This document shows, piece by piece, positions 17,268 through 47,461 of a stretch of DNA of 64,000 bases (the first letter of the stretch is position 1; the number at the start of each line of letters is the position of its first letter). The stretch is from an uncultured Oscillospiraceae bacterium (GTDB taxonomy: Bacteria; Bacillota; Clostridia; Christensenellales; CAG-138), in contig CAYPKG010000004.1 of assembly GCA_964411275.1 (NCBI GenBank), positions 672 through 64,671 on the forward strand, in the 5' to 3' direction. The notes under the pieces were generated by a model, which did not search any database, was not told where the DNA came from, and was given only the letters and a program-made list of their open reading frames with translations. Both the position numbers and the translations under genes were made by a program.

Positions 17268-17341
17268 TGGCAGGGGCAGAAGGACTCGAACCCTCAAGAA
17301 CGGTTTTGGAGACCGCTATGTTACCATTACATCATGCCCCT
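17268..17341 (-). tRNA. trnW: tRNA-Trp (anticodon CCA), CCA end encoded
   Basis: 74-nt cloverleaf AGGGGCATGATGTAATGGTAACATAGCGGTCTCCAAAACCGTTCTTGAGGGTTCGAGTCCTTCTGCCCCTGCCA. Anticodon loop CTCCAAA; T-loop GGTTCGAGTCC. Confidence 0.92.
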
Positions 17342-17446: not shown

Positions 17447-17735
17447 AATTTCATAACAAACCGTTGAGCCAGAGTAGTAATCAATGGTGTTGGGTATGCG
17501 AAGAGAGCCGCCGGCGGTGGGAATGCGGCCATACCAGCTTTGACGAATGGACTGGCGAGGGCGGCCCCAATGGCGGAATATGTTTTCCACCCTAGGGGTC
17601 GACGGGGGGCCTTCCCGTTATCATTTGGACACATATGATGGTATGTGCGGAAAAAGCGGACTGTTTTATGCAGTCAAATTGGGTGGCACCGCAGGATTTG
17701 CTCCTGTCCCTTTCATTAGGGACAGGAGCTTTTTA
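17447..17735 (+). promoter_or_regulatory. T-box riboswitch leader, Trp-specific (specifier UGG)
   Basis: AGAGAG stem I box; candidate specifier GAA-UGG-A at 17545-17551. Conserved T-box sequence AAUUGGGUGGCACCGC at 17677-17692. Terminator CTCCTGTCCC/GGGACAGGAG + CTTTTT at 17701-17735, whose 5' arm can alternatively pair with the T-box sequence. Confidence 0.85.
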
Positions 17736-17757: not shown

Positions 17758-19149
17758 ATGAGGATCATGACGACTAAAATTCCCTATCGAACCTATTTAA
17801 CTGAAGAACAGATGCCCCGCCAGTGGTACAATCTCAGGGCCGACATGAAGCAGCAGCATGACCCCATCATCAGCCCCGCCACATTTCTTCCCATGTCGGT
17901 TGATGATCTGGCGCCGGTGTTCGCAAGGGAGCTGGTGAAGCAGGAGCTCAATCAGACCGACCGGTATATCGATATTCCGAAGCCGGTGTTGGACTATTAC
18001 AAAACCTACCGCCCCTCCCCCCTCATCCGCTGTTATCAGCTGGAAAAGGCGCTAGAGACCCCTGCAAAGATATATTGCAAGTTTGAGGGCAACAACACAT
18101 CCGGCAGCCATAAGCTTAACTCAGCGGTGGCCCAGGTGTATTACGCGAAGACTGAGGGGCTCACCAGCCTGACCACAGAGACCGGCGCGGGACAATGGGG
18201 GACGGCGCTGGCCATGGCTTGCGCGTACTTTGAAATGCCGTTGACTGTGTTTATGGTGAAGATTAGCGCCCAGCAAAAGCCCTATCGAAAGGCCATCATC
18301 GAGACATTTGGCGGAGATGTCGTAGCAAGCCCCAGCAATACAACCGACGTAGGAAGAAAGCTTTTATCGGAAAACCCCGATACAAACGGGAGCCTTGGCT
18401 GCGCAATATCCGAGGCTGTTGAAGTGGCCTTAAAAACCCCGGGCTGCCGATATGTGCTGGGCTCTGTGCTGGATCAGGTTGTGCTGCATCAGTCCATCAT
18501 TGGCCTGGAGGCGAAAACTGCCATGGATCTTCTCGGCGAATACCCGGACATCGTTATCGGCTGCGCGGGCGGCGGGTCTAACCTTGGCGGTATTATGAGC
18601 GCGTACATGGGCGATAAGCTCACAGGCCATGGAAACGCCCGGTTTATCGCGGTAGAGCCCGCGTCCTGCCCCTCGCTGACCAGAGGGAAATACTTGTACG
18701 ACTTCTGCGATACCGGCAAAATCACGCCCATGGCACGGATGTATACCCTGGGAAGCGGCTTTCAGCCCTCCGGCATTCACGCGGGAGGCTTGCGTTATCA
18801 CGGCATGTCGCCTATTTTGAGCAAGCTTTATGACGATGGGTATTTGGAGGCCCGTTCCCTGCCCCAGACCAGCGTATTTGAGGCTGGTGTGGCGTTTTCC
18901 AAGCTGGAAGGCATTCTTCCCGCGCCGGAAAGCGCGCATGCCATCCGGGTTGCCATGGACGAGGCGGTGGCCTGCCGGGAGGCGGGCATCGGCAAGACCA
19001 TATTGTTCAATCTCACGGGAACCGGGTACTTTGATATGAGCGCATATATGAACTATAGCGCAGGAGAAATGGTGGATTACATCCCAAGCGACGAGGAAAT
19101 CGCCGCCGGACTGCGGGAGCTGGAGAGCCTCCCCATCAATCAGAAATAG
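17758..19149 (+). CDS. trpB2: TrpB-like PLP-dependent enzyme (tryptophan synthase beta, TrpB2 class)
   Basis: 463 aa long form with an N-terminal extension. Lysine motif NTSGSHKLN; GGGSN loop. No other trp genes nearby. Confidence 0.85.
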   Translation: MRIMTTKIPYRTYLTEEQMPRQWYNLRADMKQQHDPIISPATFLPMSVDDLAPVFARELVKQELNQTDRYIDIPKPVLDYYKTYRPSPLIRCYQLEKALETPAKIYCKFEGNNTSGSHKLNSAVAQVYYAKTEGLTSLTTETGAGQWGTALAMACAYFEMPLTVFMVKISAQQKPYRKAIIETFGGDVVASPSNTTDVGRKLLSENPDTNGSLGCAISEAVEVALKTPGCRYVLGSVLDQVVLHQSIIGLEAKTAMDLLGEYPDIVIGCAGGGSNLGGIMSAYMGDKLTGHGNARFIAVEPASCPSLTRGKYLYDFCDTGKITPMARMYTLGSGFQPSGIHAGGLRYHGMSPILSKLYDDGYLEARSLPQTSVFEAGVAFSKLEGILPAPESAHAIRVAMDEAVACREAGIGKTILFNLTGTGYFDMSAYMNYSAGEMVDYIPSDEEIAAGLRELESLPINQK

Positions 19150-25151: not shown

Positions 25152-27791
25152 TTACCCGAGATCCAGTTGCCGCTGGCGCAGTTTTTCGCTCATATCCTTC
25201 GCCTGAAGGAGCTTCCTGCGCTCCTCCTCCACAATGCTTGCGGGGGCCTTGGCAACAAATCCGGCATTGTTGAGCTTACCCTCAGCTCGCTTGATCTCCC
25301 CTTCCATCCGGGCGAGCTCCTTGGCAACCCGATCCCGCTCCTTTTCCACGTCCACCAGCTGCTCCAGTGGAATAAAGGCTTCCGCGCTGGAAATTACGAT
25401 GGAGACGGCGTTTTTCGGGATGCCTACCTTATCGCTTTGTAAAACAACGCTTTGCACGCCCGCCAGCCGGTCCATATACGCGGCAGCGCTCTTAAGGGTT
25501 TTTTCAATCTCCGGCTTTGCCACGAGTATGAGGTCAACCCGCTTTGCCGGGGGCACATTCATCTCCGCGCGGATGTTGCGGATGGCGCGGATGAGCTCCA
25601 TCAGCGCGTCCATGTCCGCCGCGTCCTTCGCGAACTCCATGGCGGGGTCGGGAGTGGGCCAGTCTGCGCGCATGATTGTTTCCCCGCTGCCGGGGAGGTT
25701 CAGATACAGCTCTTCCGTAATAAACGGCATGAAGGGATGCAGCAGCTTAAGCGATGTGGACAGCACCTTTACCAGGATCGCCCGTACGTGAGCCTTTGCA
25801 CCCTCGTCCGCGCCATACAGGCGGGGCTTGGCCATCTCGATATACCAGTCGCACAGCTCATTCCAGATATAATCGTATACCTTCTGTGCCGCCAGCCCCA
25901 GCTCGAACCCGTCAATGTTAGCCGTAACCTCGCCAATCACCTCGTTCAGTCTGTGCAAAATCCACTTGTCCGCCACGTCCAGGCGGCTGACATCGATATC
26001 GCCAGCCCGCTCATCCCCCAGGTTCATCATCACAAACCGGGCGGCATTGTAGATCTTGTTGCAGAAATTACGCGCCGCTTCCACCTTTTCCCAATAGAAA
26101 CGCATGTCGTTTCCAGCGGAGTTGCCCGCGAGCAGGCTAAAGCGCAAGGAGTCCGCGCCGTGTTTTTCGATCACATCCAGGGGGTCGATGCCGTTGCCCA
26201 AAGACTTGGACATTTTCCGGCCCAGGCTGTCTCGAACAATGCCGTGGACATACACCGTGTCAAAGGGCCGCTTACCCTGGACGCTCAGGCCGAACACGAT
26301 CATCCGGGCCACCCAGAAGAATATGATGTCGTAGCCGGTGACCAAGGTGGATGTGGGATAGAAATAATCCAGAAGCCTGTTGTCATCCGGATAGCCCAGC
26401 GTGGAGAATGGCCACATGCCGGAAGAGAACCATGTATCCAATACATCCTCATCCTGCCTTAGTTTTCCGCCGCAATGGGGGCAAAGCATACCTTCAGGCG
26501 CGGTAGGCTGCACGGTGGTCTTTGCGCAGCTGTCGCAATAATATGCGGGAATGCGGTGTCCCCACCACAGCTGGCGGGAGATGCACCAGTCTCGGATGTT
26601 CTCCATCCAATTGAAATAGGTCTTGTCAAAGCGCTGGGGCATGAACTTGATATCCCCGCTTTTCACCGCCTCGATTGCGGGAATGGCCAAAGGCTTCATG
26701 CTTACGAACCACTGCTTGGACACGATGGTTTCCACCGTGGTGTGGCAGCGATAGCAGGTGCCCACATTGTGCTTGTACGCTTCCACCCGCACCAGGTTTC
26801 CCGCCTTCTCGATGTCCGCAACGAGGTTTTTGCGGCATTCGTAGCGCTCCTGCCCCACATATGCGCCGCCAAGCTCGTTGATATACCCGTCGTCCGTAAA
26901 CACCCGGAGGATGTCCAGGCCGTTTCTCTGGCCCACCTCGAAGTCGTTGGGGTCGTGGGCGGGGGTGATTTTCACAGCGCCTGTGCCAAAGTCCATCTCC
27001 ACATAAGTGTCTGCCACGATGGGGATTTCCCGGCCTATTACGGGAATGACCACGGTCTTGCCCACGACGGCTTTGTACCGCTCGTCATCGGGGTGCACGG
27101 CGATGGCCGTGTCGCCCAATATTGTTTCCGGGCGGGTGGTGGCGATTGCGATGGAAAATGACTTGTCCGGCGCGTCATAGCGCACATGCCAGAGGTGGCT
27201 GTCCTGCTCCTCGTATTCCACCTCCGCGTCGGACAGGGCGGTTTTGCACTCCGGGCACCAGTTGATTATTCTGTCGCCCTGGTAGATCAATCCCTTATCG
27301 TAAAGCTCGCAGAACACTTTGATGACGGCATGGTTGCAGCCCTCGTCCATTGTAAAGCGTTCCTTTTCCCAGTCGCAGGAAGAGCCCAGCTTTTTTAGCT
27401 GCTGCACGATACGGCCGCCGTAAATGCGCCGCCACTCCCAGGCGCGATCCAAAAACGCGTCGCGGCCGATATCCTGTTTGTAAAGGCCCTCGGTGGCCAT
27501 CTGCTCCACAATTTTGACCTCTGTTGCAATGGAGGCATGATCCGTGCCGGGCAGCCAAAGGGTTTCAAACCCGCTCATGCGCTTATAGCGGATCAGCACG
27601 TCCTGTAGGGTGTTGTCCAGCGCGTGGCCCATGTGCAACTGTCCCGTAATGTTTGGCGGCGGGATCACGATGCAATATGGGGGCTTGTCCGGGTTGGGCT
27701 CCGCGCGAAAATACCCGTTTTGCTCCCATCTTTCATACAGGCGGGTTTCCACCGCGCTGTGGTCGTAGGTCTTATTCATTTCAGTAGCCAT
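25152..27791 (-). CDS. valS: valine--tRNA ligase
   Basis: HIGH-type motif (LHMGHAL), KMSKS, and a C-terminal coiled coil. True start is the ATG at 27791 (AAGGAGG RBS). The 70 codons upstream in the ORF track are the T-box leader. Confidence 0.95.
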   Translation of the reverse strand: MATEMNKTYDHSAVETRLYERWEQNGYFRAEPNPDKPPYCIVIPPPNITGQLHMGHALDNTLQDVLIRYKRMSGFETLWLPGTDHASIATEVKIVEQMATEGLYKQDIGRDAFLDRAWEWRRIYGGRIVQQLKKLGSSCDWEKERFTMDEGCNHAVIKVFCELYDKGLIYQGDRIINWCPECKTALSDAEVEYEEQDSHLWHVRYDAPDKSFSIAIATTRPETILGDTAIAVHPDDERYKAVVGKTVVIPVIGREIPIVADTYVEMDFGTGAVKITPAHDPNDFEVGQRNGLDILRVFTDDGYINELGGAYVGQERYECRKNLVADIEKAGNLVRVEAYKHNVGTCYRCHTTVETIVSKQWFVSMKPLAIPAIEAVKSGDIKFMPQRFDKTYFNWMENIRDWCISRQLWWGHRIPAYYCDSCAKTTVQPTAPEGMLCPHCGGKLRQDEDVLDTWFSSGMWPFSTLGYPDDNRLLDYFYPTSTLVTGYDIIFFWVARMIVFGLSVQGKRPFDTVYVHGIVRDSLGRKMSKSLGNGIDPLDVIEKHGADSLRFSLLAGNSAGNDMRFYWEKVEAARNFCNKIYNAARFVMMNLGDERAGDIDVSRLDVADKWILHRLNEVIGEVTANIDGFELGLAAQKVYDYIWNELCDWYIEMAKPRLYGADEGAKAHVRAILVKVLSTSLKLLHPFMPFITEELYLNLPGSGETIMRADWPTPDPAMEFAKDAADMDALMELIRAIRNIRAEMNVPPAKRVDLILVAKPEIEKTLKSAAAYMDRLAGVQSVVLQSDKVGIPKNAVSIVISSAEAFIPLEQLVDVEKERDRVAKELARMEGEIKRAEGKLNNAGFVAKAPASIVEEERRKLLQAKDMSEKLRQRQLDLG

Positions 27792-27861
27792 ATGATCCTC
27801 CTTATCGCCAATCAAAAACTCGTTAAAGCGCCAGCAACCAAGCAGCAGCACTTTATGGAAA

Positions 27862-28110
27862 CAAAAAAATAGCTCCGTCCTCAAAGGACGAGCTATGCCC
27901 GCGGTACCACCCTTGTTGCGCGAAACGGTTTCGCGCCTCTCAATGCCGCCGTAACGTGGCGGGGACGTGGACACTACTGTATTCGCCACCCAATGCTCCA
28001 AAGCGACATTCCGTTTTCTTGTGCCAGCGGTTTTTTCAGCCGGTGAAACCGCCTCTCTGCTGCAAAAGTGGAAACGTACTCCTCTTCATCATCGCGCCAA
28101 ATATCCAATT
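27862..28110 (-). promoter_or_regulatory. T-box riboswitch leader, Val-specific (candidate specifier GUC)
   Basis: Minus strand GCGAUGAUGAAGAGGAGUA stem I base; AGAGAG box; GUC at 28007-28005. T-box sequence CAAGGGUGGUACCGCG at 27916-27901. Terminator AGCTCGTCC/GGACGGAGCT + TATTTTTTT at 27895-27862. Confidence 0.85.
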
Positions 28111-36108: not shown

Positions 36109-37041
36109 TTACTTTTTACTTTTTCCCTTTTTTTGCGCCTTTTGCGTCTTTTCCTTTTGCTGGCGTCTGCTGTACCAGAGCGCCCACATGGGGCTTGCCA
36201 GGAAAATCGAGGAATACGTGCCCGCCAGCAGGCCGATGATGATGGGCAAAGTGAATTCCTTGATGGACTGGATGCCAAGGATGTAGATCATAACCACGGT
36301 CAACAGCGTCGTGACGGAGGTGTTGATGGAGCGGCTGAGGGTTTCCTGAATGGATTTGTTCACCACATCATCCCGATGCTTGCTGATGTACAAATCGTTT
36401 TTGCTGTTTTCCCGGATCCGGTCAAATATGACGATGGTATTGTTGATGGAATACCCAACGATGGTCAGCACCGCCGCAATAAAGGAGCTGTTCACCTGAA
36501 TGCGCAGGATGCAGGTCAACGACAGCATGATCGCAACGTCATGCAAAAGGGCGATCACCGCCGCGAAGCCGGAGTACAGCTCAAACCTGATCCAGATGTA
36601 TACCAGTATCAGCGCGCTTGCGATGAGCACTGACAGGAACGCGTTTCGAATGAGATCCGCGCTGGCAACGCCATCCACCCGGTCCACAAGCTTGATTTGT
36701 GCATTCGGGTATGTTTGCTGGATGATAGTGAGGGCGTTGGTGCGCTGCTCGCTCTCAAGCGCATCGTCATTGAGGCTCTTCATGCGAATGATAGCCTCTG
36801 TCTGGGTGGACGAGGTTGCGCCCGCGCGCACCGCCTGTGCGCCGGCAACGCCCGCCTGTTCCAGAGCGGTTTCGATGACATTCATGTCAAAATCGTCTTT
36901 TAAGTCCACTGTAAATTCCGTGCCGCCGGTAAAATCTACGCCTACATTCAGTCCGCCCGCAAGCAGACCCACCACAAGGCCCGCCAGTATGATAACGGCG
37001 GAAACGAAGGCCATCAGCTTAAATCTTTTAATATAATCCAT
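36109..37041 (-). CDS. secF: protein translocase subunit SecF
   Basis: Six-TM SecF pattern (GVDFTGGT, YSINNTIVIFDRIRE) and a Lys-rich tail. Confidence 0.92.
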   Translation of the reverse strand: MDYIKRFKLMAFVSAVIILAGLVVGLLAGGLNVGVDFTGGTEFTVDLKDDFDMNVIETALEQAGVAGAQAVRAGATSSTQTEAIIRMKSLNDDALESEQRTNALTIIQQTYPNAQIKLVDRVDGVASADLIRNAFLSVLIASALILVYIWIRFELYSGFAAVIALLHDVAIMLSLTCILRIQVNSSFIAAVLTIVGYSINNTIVIFDRIRENSKNDLYISKHRDDVVNKSIQETLSRSINTSVTTLLTVVMIYILGIQSIKEFTLPIIIGLLAGTYSSIFLASPMWALWYSRRQQKEKTQKAQKKGKSKK

Positions 37042-37054
37042 TGCGTTTCCCTCC

Positions 37055-38362
37055 TTACCTGGCGTTCGCTTCGTCCGACTCTTTGAGCCGGCAGAATAGT
37101 GCCTTGTTCTCGATATTAAAGCCTAACAGCAGGTTCATAAGCCCTCTGGTGACCAGCACCGCGTTCAGGAAGCTGACGATGATGCCGATCAACAGCGTCA
37201 CCGCAAAGCCCTTGATGCTGCCGGTACCAAACAATAACAGCACAACCGCCGCAATGATCGTGGTAATGTTGCCGTCGAGGATAGCAGCGAATGCCCGCTG
37301 GAACCCGGCCTTGACGGCGGTGCGCAAGGACTTGCCGCTTCTGATTTCCTCGGACATGCGCTCGAAAATGATGACGTTTGCGTCAACCGCCATGCCGATT
37401 GACAGGATGATGCCCGCGATGCCCGGCAGCGTCAGCTGTACGCCTGGGAACGTGGCCAACAGCGCCAGCACGATGATGATGTAAATACTCAGCGCCAGAT
37501 CCGCCATCAGGCCAGGCAGACGGTACACCACCGCCATAAACACAAACACCAGGAGAATGCCGATGGCGCCTGCGAGTATGCCGTTTTCAAGGGCGTTTTC
37601 ACCCAGGGTGGCGCTGACGGAGCGCACCTCGATCTCTTCCATTTCGATGGGCAGCGCGCCGCTTTGAATTTGTTGAGACAGCAGCTGGGCGCTTTCAGCG
37701 GTGAATGTGCCGCTGATTTCCGCCTGACCCGAAGGGATTGCCGTGTTGACCACCGGCGCAGAAATGACAGTGCCATCCATCACGATGGAAATGCTCTTAG
37801 CGGCGGCTCCCACCTCTGCCTCATTCAGTGCAGCCAGCCTTGCGGTCGTGGCTGCGAATACGCTTGCCGCTTCTGCATTGAGCTTGAAGTTCACCACATA
37901 CGCGCCGCTTTCGTTGATTGACGGGCCGACATTTTCCATGGCCGCGCCGTCGAAAAGCACAGTGCCGTCCGGGTCTACAAACTCGATTTTAGCGGGTTTG
38001 ACCAGGTACTGGGTAATGACGCTGGGGTCATCCACCATGTTGCTTTCGTTGATGGGGATTTCAATGCGCATACGGCCTGTCCCCTGCCGGGCGATGGTGG
38101 CCTCCGGATAGCCCTCGCTATCCAGACGGGTGCGCATGATTGACTCCACGATGGCCATATTATTCGCTAGATTGGGATCGGATAAATCTTTCGCCTCGTA
38201 TACGACGGAAACACCGCCCGTCAAATCCAGTCCTTTGGGGATCTGTTCCGCCAGCGGGCGGATTTCATAAATTCCCCAGGCGATGCCATTGATGGCGATG
38301 ACACCGAATACGGCTGTCAAAAACACGATCAAGACAAGCGCCACGATCTTGCGTACATTCAC
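37055..38362 (-). CDS. secD: protein translocase subunit SecD
   Basis: LDLTGGVS and AVDANVIIFERM motifs. Start set to the GTG at 38362, 8 nt after AAGGAGG. Confidence 0.9.
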   Translation of the reverse strand: MNVRKIVALVLIVFLTAVFGVIAINGIAWGIYEIRPLAEQIPKGLDLTGGVSVVYEAKDLSDPNLANNMAIVESIMRTRLDSEGYPEATIARQGTGRMRIEIPINESNMVDDPSVITQYLVKPAKIEFVDPDGTVLFDGAAMENVGPSINESGAYVVNFKLNAEAASVFAATTARLAALNEAEVGAAAKSISIVMDGTVISAPVVNTAIPSGQAEISGTFTAESAQLLSQQIQSGALPIEMEEIEVRSVSATLGENALENGILAGAIGILLVFVFMAVVYRLPGLMADLALSIYIIIVLALLATFPGVQLTLPGIAGIILSIGMAVDANVIIFERMSEEIRSGKSLRTAVKAGFQRAFAAILDGNITTIIAAVVLLLFGTGSIKGFAVTLLIGIIVSFLNAVLVTRGLMNLLLGFNIENKALFCRLKESDEANAR

Positions 38363-38469
38363 TACGCTTTCCTCCTTCGCGATGCGGGTCCGCACAATGC
38401 GCGGATACCCAAAATACAACAATGCTTATTATGTCACAGACCGCGCCCGGTTTCAAGTACCGGCCGCGC

Positions 38470-39789
38470 TTATTCCTCTGTTTTTAGCCCGATGGCGCAT
38501 TCCGTGCGCTTACATTCGAACGCGCAGGTGATTTCATGGGGCTTCATAATATCCCCATTGTATTTGTAGGCGTTGGCCGCGCAGCCGCCAGAGCAGAAGT
38601 ATTTTGCCCAGCAGCTTTGGCATTTTACTTTGGTGCGCACGGTGCAGCCCGCAAACGCCGTTTGCAGCGCCGTATCAAATGTGCCCGCAAGCACATTACC
38701 CATGGAGAAACCCTCTTCCCCCACGAACTGATGGCAGGGATAAATGTCCCCGTCCGGGGTGATGGCCACATACTCGGTACCCGCGCCGCAGCCGGTGATG
38801 CGCTTTCTTAGACAGGGGCCGTTGTCAAAATCCACCATGAAATGAAAGTAATTAAACCATTTGCCATCAGCAATGCTCTCTTGTAAAAACGCCGTGAGCC
38901 GGTCGTATTCGTCCAAAACGGCTCCCACATGCTCCTCCAGGATGGCGTAGGGGCTGTCGGGAGCGAGCACCACAGGTTCCATGGAGATTTGGGTAAAGCC
39001 CGCATCCCGAAGGGATTTTACATCCTCTGTAAAGTCCAGATTGCGGTTGGTGAACGTGCCCCGGACATAATGCTCTTTTTCACCTCGCGCTTTTACCATT
39101 GCCTGGGCGTTCTTTAACGAGATGGCATACGAACCCTTGCCGTTGATGGCGGGGCGCATGGCGTCGTGCACCTCGGGACGGCCGTCGAGGCTCAAAACGA
39201 TGTTGTGCATTTCCCGGTTGAGATATTCGATCTTGCTCTGGTCAAGCCCCACGCAGTTGGTGGTCATTGTAAAGCGGATTACCTTATTGTGCTTTCGCTC
39301 AAGCATCCTTCCATATGCGACGATGGCTTTTACCACCTCGAAATTCAAGAGGGGCTCGCCGCCGAAGAGATCAACCTCCAGGTTGCGGCGAGAACCGGAT
39401 CGCGCGATAAGAAAATTCAGAGCCGCTCTGCCCACCGCTTCGCTCATCAGCATCCGGTCGCCATGAAACTCGCCGGTGGACGCAAAGCAATACCTGCAGC
39501 GCAGGTTGCAGTCGTGGGCCACATGCAGGCACATGGCCTTGATGACCTGCTCCTGCTCTCTGGGCGCGGGGGGTGTAAGAGGCTTGGAAAGGAACATGCC
39601 TTCTTCTTGAAGTTGAGAGAACTCCTCCAAAATCTCCGCGACCTCTTGTGCAGCCCCAGCAGTATACGGATCAAGCCCTGCCTCGATAGCCTTAGCGACA
39701 TGATAGGCCGGTTGTGTCAGCTCATGCAGCGCGCCGCTTTCCACGTCCAGCACAATATATCGGTTTTGAAACTGAAATGCGTGAATCAA
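38470..39789 (-). CDS. scfB: radical SAM/SPASM thioether-forming SCIFF peptide maturase
   Basis: CNLRCRYC radical SAM motif and a C-terminal SPASM Cys clusters (CGAG...YPCHQF, CQSCWAKYFCSGGC). Lies directly downstream of the SCIFF precursor. The TTG at 39789 with a GGAGG RBS is the preferred start. Confidence 0.85.
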   Translation of the reverse strand: MIHAFQFQNRYIVLDVESGALHELTQPAYHVAKAIEAGLDPYTAGAAQEVAEILEEFSQLQEEGMFLSKPLTPPAPREQEQVIKAMCLHVAHDCNLRCRYCFASTGEFHGDRMLMSEAVGRAALNFLIARSGSRRNLEVDLFGGEPLLNFEVVKAIVAYGRMLERKHNKVIRFTMTTNCVGLDQSKIEYLNREMHNIVLSLDGRPEVHDAMRPAINGKGSYAISLKNAQAMVKARGEKEHYVRGTFTNRNLDFTEDVKSLRDAGFTQISMEPVVLAPDSPYAILEEHVGAVLDEYDRLTAFLQESIADGKWFNYFHFMVDFDNGPCLRKRITGCGAGTEYVAITPDGDIYPCHQFVGEEGFSMGNVLAGTFDTALQTAFAGCTVRTKVKCQSCWAKYFCSGGCAANAYKYNGDIMKPHEITCAFECKRTECAIGLKTEE

Positions 39790-39843
39790 TGCCTTCCTCC
39801 ATACGTCCCATAGGACAGTGATGATCAAAACTTACAAACAGTG

Positions 39844-39870
39844 ATAGGGCGGGCAAACTGCCCGCCCTAT
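39844..39870 (-). promoter_or_regulatory. GC-rich hairpin between scfA and scfB (partial terminator / mRNA-stabilising stem)
   Basis: ATAGGGCGGGCA / TGCCCGCCCTAT 12-bp stem 17 nt after the scfA stop. Only a weak U-rich tail follows (CACTGTTTGTAAGTTTT). Confidence 0.6.
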
Positions 39871-39886
39871 TGACACATGCTATACT

Positions 39887-40030
39887 TTACTTTCTTTCCT
39901 TCTGGCAGCTCTGATTGGCCACAGTGCAGCTGGTTTTGCATGCGGACTGGCAGCTGGCCTGGCACTCGCCGCAACCGGTTTGGGCGTCTGCCTTGATGCA
40001 GGGCTTCTGGATGGTTTTAATATGCTTCAT
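39887..40030 (-). CDS. scfA: SCIFF (six-cysteines-in-forty-five) ranthipeptide precursor
   Basis: 47 codons: MKHIKTIQKPCIKADAQTGCGECQASCQSACKTSCTVANQSCQKERK. GGGAGGA RBS 8 nt upstream of the ATG at 40030. Not in the ORF track (under 60 aa). Confidence 0.88.
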   Translation of the reverse strand: MKHIKTIQKPCIKADAQTGCGECQASCQSACKTSCTVANQSCQKERK

Positions 40031-40068
40031 TTCGGTATCCTCCCGTAATCAAATCAATATCAACGGAT

Positions 40069-40097
40069 ATTATACAACATATATGGGATGGGGGCAA
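40069..40097 (-). promoter_or_regulatory. candidate promoter of scfA
   Basis: Minus strand TTGCCC (40097-40092), 17-nt spacer, TATAAT (40074-40069), about 38 nt before the scfA ATG. Confidence 0.5.
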
Positions 40098-40120
40098 GCC
40101 TGGCTTCTTCAACCGGAGCT

Positions 40121-41326
40121 TCAGGCAAGGGCAATTCGCGCGGTATCCCGGGCGATGACCATTTCCTCGTCCGTGGGGATGACAAACACTTTCACCTTGC
40201 TTCCAGGCTTTGTCAGCTCAACTTCCTCACCGCGGGGACAGGTCTTGTTGTATTCGAAGTCCATGTCGATGCCCAGGTAATCCATGTCCTTAAGCACCAG
40301 CTCCCGCACGCCCCGGTCGTTTTCGCCGATGCCCGCCGTAAACACAATGGCGTCAACGCCGTTCATGCTCGCGGCATACGCGCCAATGTAACGCTTGACC
40401 TTATAGGCGAATGTTACAAGGGCTATGTCGGCCCTGTCGTTCCCGGCATCCGCCGCTTCCCGCAGGTCGCGGAAGTCGGAGGACACGCCGGAAATGCCCT
40501 TTACGCCGCTCTTTTTGTTCATGTACGCGTTTACGCCCGGGATGTCGAGGTCAAGCTTTTCCATAAGATACGTCACAATCGCCGGATCCATGTCACCGCA
40601 GCGGGTACCCATGGGCACGCCTTCGAGGGGGGTAAAGCCCATGGAGGTATCCACGGATTTGCCGCCCTTTACCGCTGTAATGGAAGAGCCGTTGCCCAGA
40701 TGGCAGGTGATGATCTTGGTGTCCTCCGCCGGCTTGCCCAGCTTTTCAATGGCCCTGCCGGACACGTACAGGTGGGACGTGCCGTGGAAGCCGTAGCGGC
40801 GAATCATCAGATCGGTATAGGCCTCATAGGGCAGGCCATAGAGAAACGCTTCTTTCGGCATTGTCTGATGGAACGCAGTGTCGAATACGCCAACCATGGG
40901 CGTATCCTGCATCAGCGCCTTGCATGCCCGCACCCCCATGAGGTTGGCGGGGTTGTGCAGGGGCGCAAGTTCCGTGAGCTCTTCCACCGTGGCGATCATC
41001 TCGTCTGTGATGAGTGCGCTGCCGGTAAACTTCTCGCCGCCATGAACCAGCCGGTGCCCCACTGCCGCGATTTCATCCATGGATTTAATCACGCCGATTT
41101 CAGGGTCGACCAGCGCGTCAAGCACCATCGAAACCGCGTCCGTATGATCCTTCATGTCCTTTTGGAACTCGTGATCGCCTTTTCCAGCGGGCTTGTAAAT
41201 GAGCTTGCTGCCGCTTATACCGATACGCTCGCAAAGGCCCTTTGCGATAACGCTTTCATCCTCGATGTTGATGAGCTGGTATTTCAAAGAGCTGCTGCCC
41301 GCGTTAATGACAAGAATGTTTTTCAT
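40121..41326 (-). CDS. ackA: acetate kinase
   Basis: [16 protein letters not shown]-terminus; 401 aa; follows pta. Confidence 0.95.
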
Positions 41327-41342: not shown

Positions 41343-42341
41343 TTACATATCCTGCGCCTGCACGGCGGTGATTGCCACGACGCTTACAATGTCCTCCACA
41401 GAGCAGCCCCTGGACAGGTCGTTGATGGGCCGGGCAAAGCCCTGGCATACGGGGCCGATGGCCTCCGCGCCCGCAAGCCGCTGCACCAGCTTGTAGCCGA
41501 TGTTCCCCGCCTGGAGGTCCGGGAATACCAGAACGTTTGCCTTGCCCGCCACAGGGCTTCCGGGGGATTTGAGCTGGCCGATTTTTTCCACCAGCGCCGC
41601 GTCCGCCTGCAGTTCGCCGTCCACATTGAGCGCCGGCGCAAGTTCTTTTACCAAAGCGGTGGCGTTTACAACCTTGTCCACCAGCTCGTGCTTGGCGCTG
41701 CCCTTTGTGGAGAAGGAAAGCATGGCCACCCGGGGCTCGATGCCGCAAAGGGCTTTCGCTGTGGAAGCGGAGGAAATGGCGATGGCCGCCAGCTGCTCGG
41801 CAGTGGGATTGGGGTTCACGGCGCAGTCCGCAAACACCAGCACGCCATCGTCGCCATAGTCTTTATTGGGAAGCTCCATCAGGAAGCAGCTGGATACAAC
41901 GGAAATGCCCTTTGCCATTTTCACAATCTGAAGGCCCGGCCTTAACGTGTCGCCGGTGGTGCAAACAGCCCCTGCTACCATGCCGTCCGCCGCGCCCTCT
42001 TTCACCATCATGGCGGCAAAGAACATCGGGTCTTTCATGGTTTGTGCAGCTTTTTCCGGCGTTACGCCCTTTGCCTTGCGCATTTCATAAAATTTGTCCG
42101 TATACGAGCCAAGGTCTGGGGAAGCAACGGGGTCGAGTATCGATACGCCGGAAAGGTCCACATGAAGCTTCTCGGCGCTTTTACCAATTTCTTCGGCATT
42201 GCCCAGCAATGTAATGTCGGCAAGCCCTTCCTTTACGATGATCGCGGCCGCCTGTACCATGCGTTCTTCCGGGCCCTCGGGCAACAGAATATGCTTTTTG
42301 TTTGATTTGGCCTTGGCTTTGATCCCATCCATTAACGACAT
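41343..42341 (-). CDS. pta: phosphate acetyltransferase
   Basis: 332 aa PTA_PTB domain (short Firmicute form); pta-ackA order. Confidence 0.92.
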
Positions 42342-42494
42342 GTGCTTGACTCTCCTTCCATATTGAAAACAGTAAATTGTGGATTGCTGCTGAAATTATA
42401 ACATAATTTTATGAACCCGTGCACATAAAATCCATATTTTAAGAATAATTCTTCCGCTATTCTGTGATACAATAACAAAAAGGAGGCATGCGCC

Positions 42495-43706
42495 ATGAAA
42501 ATCGCTGGAATTATCGCCGAATACAACCCCATGCACAATGGGCATGTTTACCACATTTCTCAAACCCGGGAGGCCACCGGCTGCGATTATCTCATGGTCG
42601 TCATGAGCGGGGATTTTGTGCAGCGGGGAGAGCCGGCCATTGCAGACAAGTTCACCCGCACACGCTGGGCATTGGAGGCGGGCGCAGATCTTGTGCTGGA
42701 GCTTCCCAGCGCCGCTGCTGTGGCCAGCGCCGAACGGTTTGCCCGTGGCGGCGTACAAACCCTTTGCGCAACCGGCGTGTTGACCCATCTTTGCTTTGGC
42801 AGCGAGCTTTCGGACGTGGACGCCCTGTGCGCCGCGTCAGAGCATCTCGCCAAGGAGCCGCCAGGGTTTAAGGCCGCATTAAAGGAGCAGCTTTCCCTTG
42901 GAAAATCCTATCCCCGGGCAAGATATGACGCTCTGGAGAGCTGCGGCGCGCCAAAGACGCTGCTTGAGGCGTTGAAATCTCCCAACAGCATACTCGCCAT
43001 GGAGTATATCCGCTTTTTGCGGCAGTTTGGGCCTGAAGTGATCCCCGTGGCAATCGAGCGGCTGGGCAGCGGCCACGATCAGCCGGGACTAGGCGGCTTT
43101 GCCAGCGCCAGCGCGATAAGAAACGCGCTTTTGGCTGGGGACGCGGATGTGTACGAAAGCATGCCCATGTATGTAGGCGGCCGGTTTGCCCTTGGCCAAA
43201 TCCCCCCCATCAGCCTTAACGAGGCGCAGGAACTGATATTGTACGCCCTTTTACGTATGTCGCCGGAGGAATTAAGCAACCTCCCCGACGTGCAGGAGGG
43301 GTTTGAAAACGTGATTTACCGGGCCGTGCGCCAAGCTTCCTCGCTGGACGAGCTGTACGCGGAGCTAAAAAGCAAGCGGTATACCCTTGCCCGCTGCCGG
43401 CGGATCGCCCTGTGCGCGCTGCTTGGCATCGACAAGGCGCTGCTGCAGACCTCTATGGGCGAGGAGGGCGCGGGGTATCTGCGGGTACTGGGCTTTCGCC
43501 GGGACGCGAGGCCGCTATTATCCGCCATTTCCCACCATGGCAGCATGCCGCTCATCATGCGCTATTCCGATCAGATGGGCTGCTCCCCCGCCGCCCAGGC
43601 ATTGTTGAAGCTGGATATCGAGGCGCACAACATCTACGCCCTGTTGCTTGGCAAGCATGGGGAAAGCATTCCGCGGGATTTTAAAAGCCCGCCGGTGATG
43701 ATATAA
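42495..43706 (+). CDS. tmcAL: tRNA(Met) cytidine acetate ligase (YlbM/UPF0348 nucleotidyltransferase)
   Basis: GIIAEYNPMHNGHVYH HIGH-like motif at the N-terminus; about 400 aa. Confidence 0.8.
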   Translation: MKIAGIIAEYNPMHNGHVYHISQTREATGCDYLMVVMSGDFVQRGEPAIADKFTRTRWALEAGADLVLELPSAAAVASAERFARGGVQTLCATGVLTHLCFGSELSDVDALCAASEHLAKEPPGFKAALKEQLSLGKSYPRARYDALESCGAPKTLLEALKSPNSILAMEYIRFLRQFGPEVIPVAIERLGSGHDQPGLGGFASASAIRNALLAGDADVYESMPMYVGGRFALGQIPPISLNEAQELILYALLRMSPEELSNLPDVQEGFENVIYRAVRQASSLDELYAELKSKRYTLARCRRIALCALLGIDKALLQTSMGEEGAGYLRVLGFRRDARPLLSAISHHGSMPLIMRYSDQMGCSPAAQALLKLDIEAHNIYALLLGKHGESIPRDFKSPPVMI

Positions 43707-44625: not shown

Positions 44626-45738
44626 TTGAAACGAATGATCGCCGTCCTCGCCTTCGGCGTGTGCATCCTGCTGTTGCTGTTTTCGGGGCCGGTTATGGAT
44701 GCCGCCCAGGATGGGCTTACCCTTTGGTGGAAGGTTGTCCTGCCCACCCTGTTTCCATTCTTTGTCTGCGCCACTTTAATCGAGCGCTCCGGCGCGCTGG
44801 CATCCCTATCGCGCTTGTTTGCGCCCCTGTCAAAGCTACTGAGGGTCTCCCCCTATGCCCTGCCAGTGCTGCTGTTGGGGGGCATGGCGGGCTATCCCTC
44901 CGGCGCGCGGCTGACGGGTATGCTGCAATCGGAAATCTCCTCTGCCGAGGCGGACCGGCTGGGAACCGTGTGCAACCTGTGCAGCCCCATGTTTTTGCTG
45001 GGCGCGCTGTGCACCGGGATGCTTGGAAATTCCGCCCTGTTTCTGCCCCTGCTCATCGGTCATTATGGAAGCGCTCTTCTCGTCATGGTATTCCTAAAGA
45101 TAGTGTGCCCCATCCCAAGCAGCAATGTAAGGATCATCCGCGTATCTCCAGCTCAGCCGGTTTTGCAGGCGCTTCCCACCGCCATTTCCGACGGGGTTCT
45201 GGGGTTGATCAAGGTGGGTGGCAGCATCGTGTTTTTTCTCGTCCTCGCAAAAATATTGTCCATTACCGGGATACTTCGCCTGCTCTGCTTGCCAGCGTCG
45301 TTTGTTTCGGATACGGCAGCCTTGGCTGCCCCCGGACTTTTGTGCGGCATGCTGGAAATGACAGGGGGCTTACACATGCTGTCCGCGGCAGGATTGCCCC
45401 TTCGGTTAACGGCAGCGCTTAGCGCGTATCTCGTGTCCTTTGGCGGCCTTTGCGTCATGGTCCAAGCGATGGCGTTCTTATGGTATGAGCGTCCGGGAAC
45501 TTATATTCTAACGAAACTTGCCCAGGGCGTCCTGGCGGGGCTCATCACATGGTTCGTATTTCCCCTTCTCCCTGGCACGGCTCAAGCGATAGCAGGGCCT
45601 GATGCGGCATTTTATATGGAAAACGCGTACGTTGGCCTTTCCCTGCTGTTTTCCAGCGCTCTCGGGCTTTCTATTCCCCTTTTGCTTTCCCGTGTGGCGC
45701 GAAGGCGCAAGGCTACTCGACTAAAGTCAGGCGCTTGA
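44626..45738 (+). CDS. ylbJ: sporulation integral membrane protein YlbJ (nucleoside-recognition-domain family)
   Basis: Multi-pass membrane protein with an N-terminus like YlbJ (GLTLWWKVVLPTLFPFF). TTG start 8 nt after GGAGG. Confidence 0.7.
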   Translation: MKRMIAVLAFGVCILLLLFSGPVMDAAQDGLTLWWKVVLPTLFPFFVCATLIERSGALASLSRLFAPLSKLLRVSPYALPVLLLGGMAGYPSGARLTGMLQSEISSAEADRLGTVCNLCSPMFLLGALCTGMLGNSALFLPLLIGHYGSALLVMVFLKIVCPIPSSNVRIIRVSPAQPVLQALPTAISDGVLGLIKVGGSIVFFLVLAKILSITGILRLLCLPASFVSDTAALAAPGLLCGMLEMTGGLHMLSAAGLPLRLTAALSAYLVSFGGLCVMVQAMAFLWYERPGTYILTKLAQGVLAGLITWFVFPLLPGTAQAIAGPDAAFYMENAYVGLSLLFSSALGLSIPLLLSRVARRRKATRLKSGA

Positions 45739-47461
45739 CCGCCGCCTCGTCCGGGGTAATGTAAATGGTGCGGTTGGCGGTGTATATCACCATCCCCGGC
45801 TTTGCGCCGGAGGGTTTTTTCACATACTTCCGGGGGCAATAATCCACCGGCACCGAGGCGGAGGCCCTGGCCTTGCTGTAGAATGCAGCCAATGTAGCCG
45901 CTTCCCTCAGTGTCCGCTCCGGCGGCTCCCCCTCGTGGCGGATGATCACATGCGAACCAGGGATGTTTTTCGTGTGCAGCCAAAAATTTTCCCCAGTGGC
46001 GAATTTTAGCGTCAGGGCATCGTTTTGCGCATTGTTTTTGCCCACGTACAGGTCAATCCCGTCGCTTGACATATAATGATGGGGCTTGGAGGGAGGGCGC
46101 TTTTGCGGCTTCATCCGGGTGTTCTGGCGCTTGGCGTAACCTTCTAGCTCCAACTCCTCCCGGATTTCTGAAAGCTCCGCGTCGGTGCTGCATTTTTGCA
46201 GGTTGTCCTGCTGCCCTTCCAGATACGCGATCTCCTCCAAGGTTTGTCTTCGCTGCTCCACAGCCAGCGCCTTGGCAGCCTTGCCCTTTTGATACTTCTT
46301 AAAATACCGCTGGGCGTTCTCCTGGGGGGACAGCCGTTCGTCCAGCGCCACCAGAACGGGCGCGGGGGGATCCTCGTAATAATTCATGAGCTTTGCCATG
46401 CGTTCCCCGCGCTTGATTGCGTGAAAGTTTGCGGTAATCAGCTCCCCAAGCAGCCGGTATTGGTCAAGGCTTTCCTGTTGGTTGAGGGCGGTTTCAAAAA
46501 CCGAAAGTTTTTTTTGGCACCGCTCCAGGTTGTTTTGCAGCACCTTTTGCAGCGCTGTGCTGCGTCTGCGGATGCGCTCCAACACATTCCGTGTTTCATA
46601 GTATACATCCAGCGCAGTCCCCATATCCGGCATGGCTCTGAGATATTGGTTCGGGATAGCCGGGCGAAAGGGATGCACGGCAACAGGCTCGTGCAAATCG
46701 TTATACACCAGCGTCGGCGAAAACCGGCCCGCCGCCGCATCCTGATAGAAGGCGCTTAGACTCTTGGAAAGCGCCTTCCGGTCTTCATCCGACAACCGCG
46801 CCGCGTCCATGTCCCCCTCCTCCACCACGCGCCCGCACAACAGCGCGGCATACGCAGGAGACAGGCCAAAAAAAGCGTTGGACAGCAATTTATGGATCCG
46901 GCCAGGGCCAGAAAGCGCCCTTTCAAAATCCTCCGCCTCGCACTCACGGGGGTCGCGCTTGTCCTGCTGGGGCGGCAGCGTGTAATTTAGCCCCGGCAAG
47001 AGCAGCCGGACGCTGGACATGCCAGCGCCCACATGCCGGGCGCAGTCCAGAATGACGCCCTGCTCGCTTAAAAATATGATGTTGGAATGCCGGCCCATCA
47101 GCTCTACAATCAGTTCAACCCGGGTCAGGTCCCCTAATTCATCCTGTACCTGTGCCGTGAGGCGCAACACCCGGTCAAGGCCCGGCTGCTCGATGGCGGC
47201 AATCCGTCCGCCGCTGAGCCGTTTTCGCAGCAGCATGCAAAACGCGGGAGGTTCTGGCGGGTTGGGGAATTGGGCGGCCGTCACCTGTACCCGGCCGTTT
47301 TCCGGGTGAGCACAAAGGAGCAGCCGATGATTGCTGCCCCCAGAACGGATTGTCAGCAGCAACGCGTCCCGCTCCGGCTGCTGTACCTTATCGATTTTTC
47401 CCCCAACAAGCCCCTGTAGCTCATGCGTGACTGCCAGCAGGGAAAGCCCATCCATGGACAT
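45713..47461 (-). CDS. rqcH: NFACT-family ribosome quality control protein RqcH (FbpA-like)
   Basis: 582 aa, with an NFACT-N domain, coiled coil and NFACT-R region (NAQNDALT...WLHTKNIPGSHV). Confidence 0.85.
   Translation of the reverse strand: MSMDGLSLLAVTHELQGLVGGKIDKVQQPERDALLLTIRSGGSNHRLLLCAHPENGRVQVTAAQFPNPPEPPAFCMLLRKRLSGGRIAAIEQPGLDRVLRLTAQVQDELGDLTRVELIVELMGRHSNIIFLSEQGVILDCARHVGAGMSSVRLLLPGLNYTLPPQQDKRDPRECEAEDFERALSGPGRIHKLLSNAFFGLSPAYAALLCGRVVEEGDMDAARLSDEDRKALSKSLSAFYQDAAAGRFSPTLVYNDLHEPVAVHPFRPAIPNQYLRAMPDMGTALDVYYETRNVLERIRRRSTALQKVLQNNLERCQKKLSVFETALNQQESLDQYRLLGELITANFHAIKRGERMAKLMNYYEDPPAPVLVALDERLSPQENAQRYFKKYQKGKAAKALAVEQRRQTLEEIAYLEGQQDNLQKCSTDAELSEIREELELEGYAKRQNTRMKPQKRPPSKPHHYMSSDGIDLYVGKNNAQNDALTLKFATGENFWLHTKNIPGSHVIIRHEGEPPERTLREAATLAAFYSKARASASVPVDYCPRKYVKKPSGAKPGMVIYTANRTIYITPDEAAVKRLTLVE

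Follow-up and report, generated by a model that had tools for sequence, protein, structure and literature searches.

Does a 47-codon, cysteine-rich open reading frame (ORF) in this stretch of DNA (the window, meaning all 64,000 nucleotides analyzed) encode a RiPP precursor alongside its modifying enzyme, and what might the peptide do? The original prediction took the ORF, on the minus strand from 40030 to 39887, for a SCIFF-type (six-cysteine ranthipeptide) precursor in front of its radical-SAM/SPASM maturase. We consider it very probable that the two genes, here called scfA and scfB, are a canonical SCIFF ranthipeptide pair. The analysis itself shows what the genes are, which family they belong to, that their catalytic residues are conserved, that selection is purifying and that synteny is retained; it found no evidence against the SCIFF identification. 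The precursor gene and its ribosome-binding site are as follows.

scfA, 39887..40030, minus strand: 47-aa SCIFF (six-cysteine ranthipeptide) precursor, with ATG at 40030 and TAA at 39889-39887.
Shine-Dalgarno sequence GGGAGGA of scfA, 40038..40044, minus strand: 7 to 8 nt before the ATG.

The scfA translation, MKHIKTIQKPCIKADAQTGCGECQASCQSACKTSCTVANQSCQKERK (47 aa), is identical to that given in the original prediction. It comprises a leader of approximately residues 1 to 19, with Cys11 inside it, and a core in which six cysteines (C20-x2-C23-x3-C27-x3-C31-x3-C35-x6-C42) have the SCIFF spacing C-x2-C-x3-C-x3-C-x3-C-x6-C. A comparison with family models had been proposed as a check on this identity, and both curated models matched above their cut-offs: NCBIfam TIGR03973 with 68.9 bits (cut-off, 50; E = 2.6e-19; model positions 1 to 43 of 43) and Pfam PF13165 with 70.5 bits (gathering score, 27; E = 1.1e-19; model positions 1 to 44 of 44). 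The six core cysteines are also present in 115 of the 120 nearest homologues, and the CKTSCT motif (C31 as donor, T33 and T36 as acceptors) is invariant in nearly all homologues. A protein search with the precursor returned 3206 proteins at E ≤ 1e-3 and 1219 representatives at 50% identity. In some database proteins (P0122 and P0128) two SCIFFs are fused, and a single ORF of 92 to 108 aa holds both leader-core units. The closest loci all come from metagenome-assembled genomes labeled Clostridia, Eubacteriales, Oscillospiraceae or Bacillota, and the named homologues belong to Clostridia or Christensenellaceae. No second SCIFF or maturase copy was found within the window, where scfA and scfB are each single.

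Might scfA instead be an unexpressed reading frame that arose by chance in the spacer between genes? Its 47 codons, below the size cut-off of the first-stage ORF list, would fit such a reading. That length cut-off, and nothing else, explains why the ORF was described as unlisted; the description holds for the list, but in public assemblies of the same organism the gene is already called and tagged PF13165. Several observations argue against a chance frame, beginning with E values of ~1e-19 to two curated models and the strong Shine-Dalgarno sequence, with GGAGG at equal spacing in related loci. Comparison of scfA with five same-length orthologues gave pS values of 0.47 to 0.73, which are near saturation, and pN values of 0.10 to 0.15. 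Because synonymous sites are near-saturated while pN/pS is 0.14 to 0.31, the scfA frame is under purifying selection. The gene also adjoins its maturase in all 11 related loci, and gene callers report it in independent assemblies. On the strength of the HMM scores, purifying selection and synteny we rejected the chance-ORF explanation, to which we attach almost no credence.

The pair has a prior record. The DNA of scfA and its flanks (39780-40130, 351 bases compared) is identical in the Logan assembly of SRR8925759 (L012), and contigs of SRR8925721 (L013) and SRR8925811 (L014) carry the same ScfA protein; all three encode the maturase at 100% identity, and in all three the 47-aa SCIFF gene is called and bears the PF13165 tag. 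The same organism recurs in these three public sequencing runs. A word-indexed protein search with ScfA had 87% identity as its best match listed; the exact ScfA is in the collection and was reached via the maturase.

The maturase gene lies on the same strand as scfA, across a spacer of 97 nt, and the same precursor-then-maturase arrangement is seen in the related loci L001 to L010. The gene and its metal ligands are listed below, with the equivalent residues of the Clostridium thermocellum maturase CteB.

scfB, 38470..39789, minus strand: 439-aa radical-SAM/SPASM thioether-forming SCIFF maturase (CteB/Tte1186 orthologue), with a TTG start after GGAGGAAGG.
Radical-SAM cluster: ScfB C94/C98/C101 (CNLRCRYC, CX3CX2C), equivalent to CteB C104/C108/C111.
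Auxiliary cluster 1 (three protein ligands): ScfB C334/C352/C403, equivalent to CteB C344/C362/C413.
Auxiliary cluster 2: ScfB C390/C393/C399/C422, equivalent to CteB C400/C403/C409/C432.

ScfB scored 594.5 bits (cut-off, 425) against TIGR03974, the model for the "thioether cross-link-forming SCIFF peptide maturase," and 489.6 bits against NF040492, the exception model for "not_ScfB" orphan maturases, under its cut-off of 855. It aligned end to end (residues 1 to 439; E = 5e-144) with the CteB crystal structure 5WGG at 49% identity, and in this alignment all ten Fe-S ligand cysteines of CteB (ligand list from PMC10177961) are kept. The SPASM domain matched TIGR04085 with 70.7 bits, and residues 1 to 90 align without large gaps to the CteB N terminus, the part of CteB that holds the peptide-recognition (RRE) domain. 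The TIGR03974 score and the conserved ligands bear out the claim that the gene at 38470-39789, with its CNLRCRYC motif and SPASM cysteines, encodes a ScfB/CteB-type maturase. We placed the start at TTG 39789 because it coincides with the beginning of the family model and of CteB and follows the ribosome-binding site GGAGGAAGG. A longer gene starting from TTG 39828 (452 aa) was rejected on the same evidence and on the public gene calls, which give a 439-aa ScfB that is 100% identical.

Among characterized systems, CteA/CteB of C. thermocellum (thermocellin; PDB 5WGG/5WHY) shares with the window pair the full-length maturase similarity and the three-cluster ligand set described above. CteA and the window peptide have in common the MKHIKT leader start and the CGECQxSCQSACKTSCTVxNQxC core. 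The window peptide differs from CteA in having an extra leader cysteine at position 11 (KPC) and an Ala-rich core variant (QASC, TVANQ), and the pair differs in its host, an uncultured Clostridia lineage, and in its upstream neighbors, pta-ackA. Tte1186a/Tte1186 of Caldanaerobacter subterraneus belongs to the same TIGR03973/TIGR03974 family and is related to the window pair through the family model and its equivalence with CteB in the literature; it forms a single Cys-Thr thioether at CKTSCT, with the donor Cys on auxiliary cluster 1 (PMC10177961). PapA/PapB (freyrasin, Paenibacillus polymyxa) has a homologous radical-SAM/SPASM maturase that makes non-alpha thioethers, but ScfB scored 265.1 bits against NF047865, under the PapB cut-off of 340. 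The CX3D (CxxxD) repeats of PapB-type precursors are absent from the window peptide, and the Cys-Asp C-beta chemistry of PapB is therefore not expected for it. QhpD, the maturase of quinohemoprotein amine dehydrogenase, is a related radical-SAM/SPASM thioether synthase (TIGR03906, 221.7 bits, far below 453); its substrate is a protein subunit and not a RiPP precursor, and qhp genes are absent here. A sactipeptide (C-alpha thioether; RumMC, AlbA) system was rejected, with 97.5 bits against the RumMC cut-off of 720 and the accessory genes absent.

The maturation steps for the window pair can be proposed by homology to the characterized orthologues CteB/CteA and Tte1186/Tte1186a. The MKHIKTI... 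leader would be bound by the N-terminal RRE domain of ScfB, and SAM would be cleaved at the CX3CX2C [4Fe-4S] cluster to give a 5′-deoxyadenosyl radical. This radical would abstract a hydrogen from a Thr side chain, for which T33 and T36 (equivalent to CteA Thr34 and Thr37) are the candidates in the window peptide. A bond would then form between the Thr carbon and the sulfur of C31 (the fourth core cysteine, equivalent to CteA Cys32), which would sit on the open iron of auxiliary cluster 1, and the predicted product is a non-alpha (C-gamma) thioether ring. The one non-alpha thioether that SCIFF maturases form connects the fourth core cysteine (Cys32 of CteA and Tte1186a) to a Thr, and the structure of CteB has an N-terminal RRE with a substrate Cys on auxiliary cluster 1 (PMC8326336, PMC8172795, PMC10177961). 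The open iron of that cluster is the binding site of the cross-linking Cys (PMC10177961). The position of the link is disputed: Cys32-Thr37 was found in vitro versus Cys32-Thr34 (C-gamma) upon coexpression in E. coli (PMC8326336).

Sequence signals around scfA suggest how the precursor may be expressed.

Sigma-70-like promoter candidate TTGCCC-17 nt-TATAAT, 40069..40097, minus strand: ~40 nt before the scfA start codon, matching the consensus at 10 of 12 positions.
12-bp GC-rich stem-loop (AUAGGGCGGGCAG-UUU-...) followed by a U-rich stretch, 39844..39870, minus strand: 17 nt past the scfA stop, terminator-like.

The originally predicted GGGAGGA Shine-Dalgarno sequence is present 7 to 8 nt upstream, and translation would start from this strong ribosome-binding site. 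Transcription may begin at a promoter of scfA itself, possibly with additional read-through from pta-ackA; the promoter candidate is a consensus match, of which shuffled sequence yields about as many as the region does. The intergenic hairpin between scfA and scfB has a predicted energy of -27.4 kcal/mol (z = -5.4), and none of 200 shuffles folded as well. Most of 10 related loci have a predicted stem-loop at the corresponding position, despite unrelated sequences, and in L008 and L009 it is weak. The hairpin is probably a partial terminator or an mRNA stabilizer between precursor and maturase. Intercistronic hairpins that raise precursor mRNA over maturase mRNA are common in RiPP operons, and the one past the scfA stop probably shifts message abundance in favor of the precursor over the maturase.

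Another promoter-like site (38428-38456, minus strand; TTGAAA-17-CATAAT with an upstream TG), likewise a consensus match, is located in the 107-nt scfB-secD spacer and suggests that secDF may have its own promoter. An Rfam scan at gathering scores gave no known RNA element near scfA and three hits elsewhere in the window.

T-box leader, 27881-28101, minus strand: above its Rfam gathering score, precedes valS; the listed valS ORF (25152-28001) is over-extended into this leader.
T-box leader, 17455-17714, plus strand: above its Rfam gathering score, precedes the ORF at 17758-19149.
tRNA gene, 17271-17341, minus strand.

The scfAB pair lies in a minus-strand block with the order valS, hemZ, MBL-fold hydrolase, dtd, relA, apt, recJ, secF, secD, scfB, scfA, ackA, pta and orf130. 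Its immediate neighbors are those originally described, pta-ackA upstream and secD-secF downstream.

secF, 36109..37041, minus strand: conserved downstream context.
secD, 37055..38362, minus strand: GTG start at 38362 in public assemblies; conserved downstream context, not RiPP machinery.
ackA, 40121-41326, minus strand: clade-specific upstream context.
pta, 41343-42341, minus strand: clade-specific upstream context.

In loci L002 to L006 the order pta-ackA-scfA-scfB is kept, followed by recJ; an intervening secDF, placed between scfB and recJ, is confined to L006 and the window. L001 to L005 retain scfAB but have no secDF at the locus, and recJ comes straight after scfB (for example, L002:8320-8362); the SCIFF-secDF linkage is therefore not obligatory. 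More distant Clostridia carry scfAB in the following blocks.

L007:3029-11246, L008:2535-12142 and L009:113-7815: queA/tgt-yajC-(DUF3792)-scfA-scfB-secD-secF-recJ, with a DUF3792 gene sometimes before scfA.
L010:4101-8023: the queA-tgt side alone is visible, and the contig ends inside scfB.

Throughout the clade of the window, pta-ackA stands in place of the yajC side, and this flank is a clade-level rearrangement. Because flanking order is shared across related and distant Clostridia, scfAB is taken to be vertically inherited inside a housekeeping block. Family-model scans found no protease, exporter or immunity gene for scfAB within ~10 kb in the window. The original prediction was right on this point but treated the setting as unusual; all 11 related loci examined have housekeeping flanks and likewise lack such genes, and the arrangements pta-ackA-scfAB-(secDF)-recJ in L002 to L006 and tgt-yajC-scfAB-secDF-recJ in L007 to L009 led us to reject that part of the claim. 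The terms "SCIFF" and "secD" were not found together in the open-access literature searched.

The seventh cysteine was likewise taken for a peculiarity of this copy. Cys11 is indeed present in the leader, in a K-P-C-I context, but it is a widespread sub-clade trait: of the 120 nearest clusters at 90% identity, 105 have a leader cysteine, mostly 9 to 10 residues ahead of the first core Cys, and so do 45 of the 146 nearest representatives at 50% identity with a parsable core (150 listed). Its uniqueness was rejected on these counts. Representatives that lack it include classical MKHIKTLN...KKGGCGEC forms. Conservation of this residue amid variable neighbors hints that it is perhaps functional. 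A bolder proposal puts the window in a large sub-family of "seven-cysteine" SCIFFs with a functional leader cysteine (K-P-C-[ILM], position 11) and a leader that is never removed, and takes the yajC/secDF position to reflect real Sec coupling; we regard this combination as quite unlikely. The leader cysteine could in that case donate an additional cross-link, ligate a cluster or a metal, or take part in a disulfide, and Sec coupling, if true, would explain why an exporter or protease is never encoded beside the SCIFF pair.

What the modified peptide does is the least certain step of the proposed scheme. Most likely it is no antibiotic but a low-copy regulatory or signaling peptide made by a spore-forming member of the class Clostridia, a fate that we propose alongside the observation that the surroundings encode no dedicated protease or exporter. 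The original prediction held that the role of the mature peptide was unknown; this is qualified by a quorum-sensing/regulatory role already published by Chen et al. 2020, as cited in PMC8102284 and PMC8326336. According to those summaries, knockout of precursor and maturase in Clostridium beijerinckii lowered expression of sporulation genes and raised that of agr, and this transcriptome was read as a SCIFF role in quorum sensing. The evidence for a regulatory role is thus a C. beijerinckii knockout transcriptome, from a species distant from the window host (as summarized in PMC8102284).

A bacteriocin-type antimicrobial made by a minimal two-gene cluster, as for sactipeptides, would have precedent, since subtilosin, thuricin and ruminococcin C are antimicrobial radical-SAM thioether peptides (PMC8326336, PMC8172795) and ScfB bears a weaker likeness to the sactipeptide maturases, with the RumMC score given above far below its cut-off. 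We nevertheless find this highly unlikely. Immunity, ABC-exporter and leader-protease genes are absent within ~10 kb, the pair occurs as one copy and holds a fixed place within a housekeeping block even in distant Clostridia, and the core is near-invariant over thousands of clusters, the opposite of the diversification expected of a bacteriocin; PMC8326336 likewise argues against an antimicrobial role.

The missing exporter and leader protease would suit a peptide that works in the cell or at the membrane and is no diffusible signal, for example as a metal- or Fe-S-binding, redox or YajC-SecDF translocon accessory factor. Such a role is also consistent with the position of the pair between yajC and secDF in L007 to L009 and directly upstream of secDF in the window and L006, and with the presence of seven cysteines in 47 residues, yet one thioether found experimentally (PMC8326336). 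However, scfAB stays in L001 to L005, where secDF is not at the locus, and an ancient housekeeping block can keep its synteny for historical reasons. The published phenotype, as summarized in PMC8102284, favors signaling or regulation. An intracellular or membrane role is unlikely in our judgment, and the regulatory or signaling peptide is the reading that we prefer.

The scfA-scfB pair is already known, being covered by curated models and automated annotation, and the finding is correct but ordinary because the pair occurs in nearly all Clostridia and is recognized by standard annotation. As one more copy of a near-universal Clostridia gene pair with curated HMMs and a crystal structure, it carries little weight alone; it also exemplifies how real RiPP precursors are hidden by small-ORF cut-offs. 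In a 2026 preprint (10.1101/2025.02.12.637840), these ranthipeptide clusters are found to be conserved among the clostridial orders and never to exceed one in a species. What SCIFF peptides do physiologically is understood only in part, and experiments in a tractable Clostridium could use two comparative leads, the leader cysteine conserved in a large sub-clade and the conserved placement in the yajC-secDF-recJ block.

Four further genes were noted in the window.

orf130, 42396-42788, minus strand: upstream of pta, 130 aa, with no Pfam or NCBIfam match; counterparts of 32 to 35% identity occupy the same position in L002 to L005.
HIGH-motif nucleotidyltransferase, 42495-43706, plus strand: 351.4 bits against 360, just below the cut-off.
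RqcH/fibronectin-binding-like protein, 45713-47461, minus strand: EfbA 488.8 against 1025 and RqcH 170.1 against 400, both below cut-off.
ylbJ-like sporulation membrane protein, 44626-45738, plus strand: 184.5 bits, below the 304.65 cut-off.

The ylbJ-like gene, if genuine, would make the host probably a spore-forming Firmicute.
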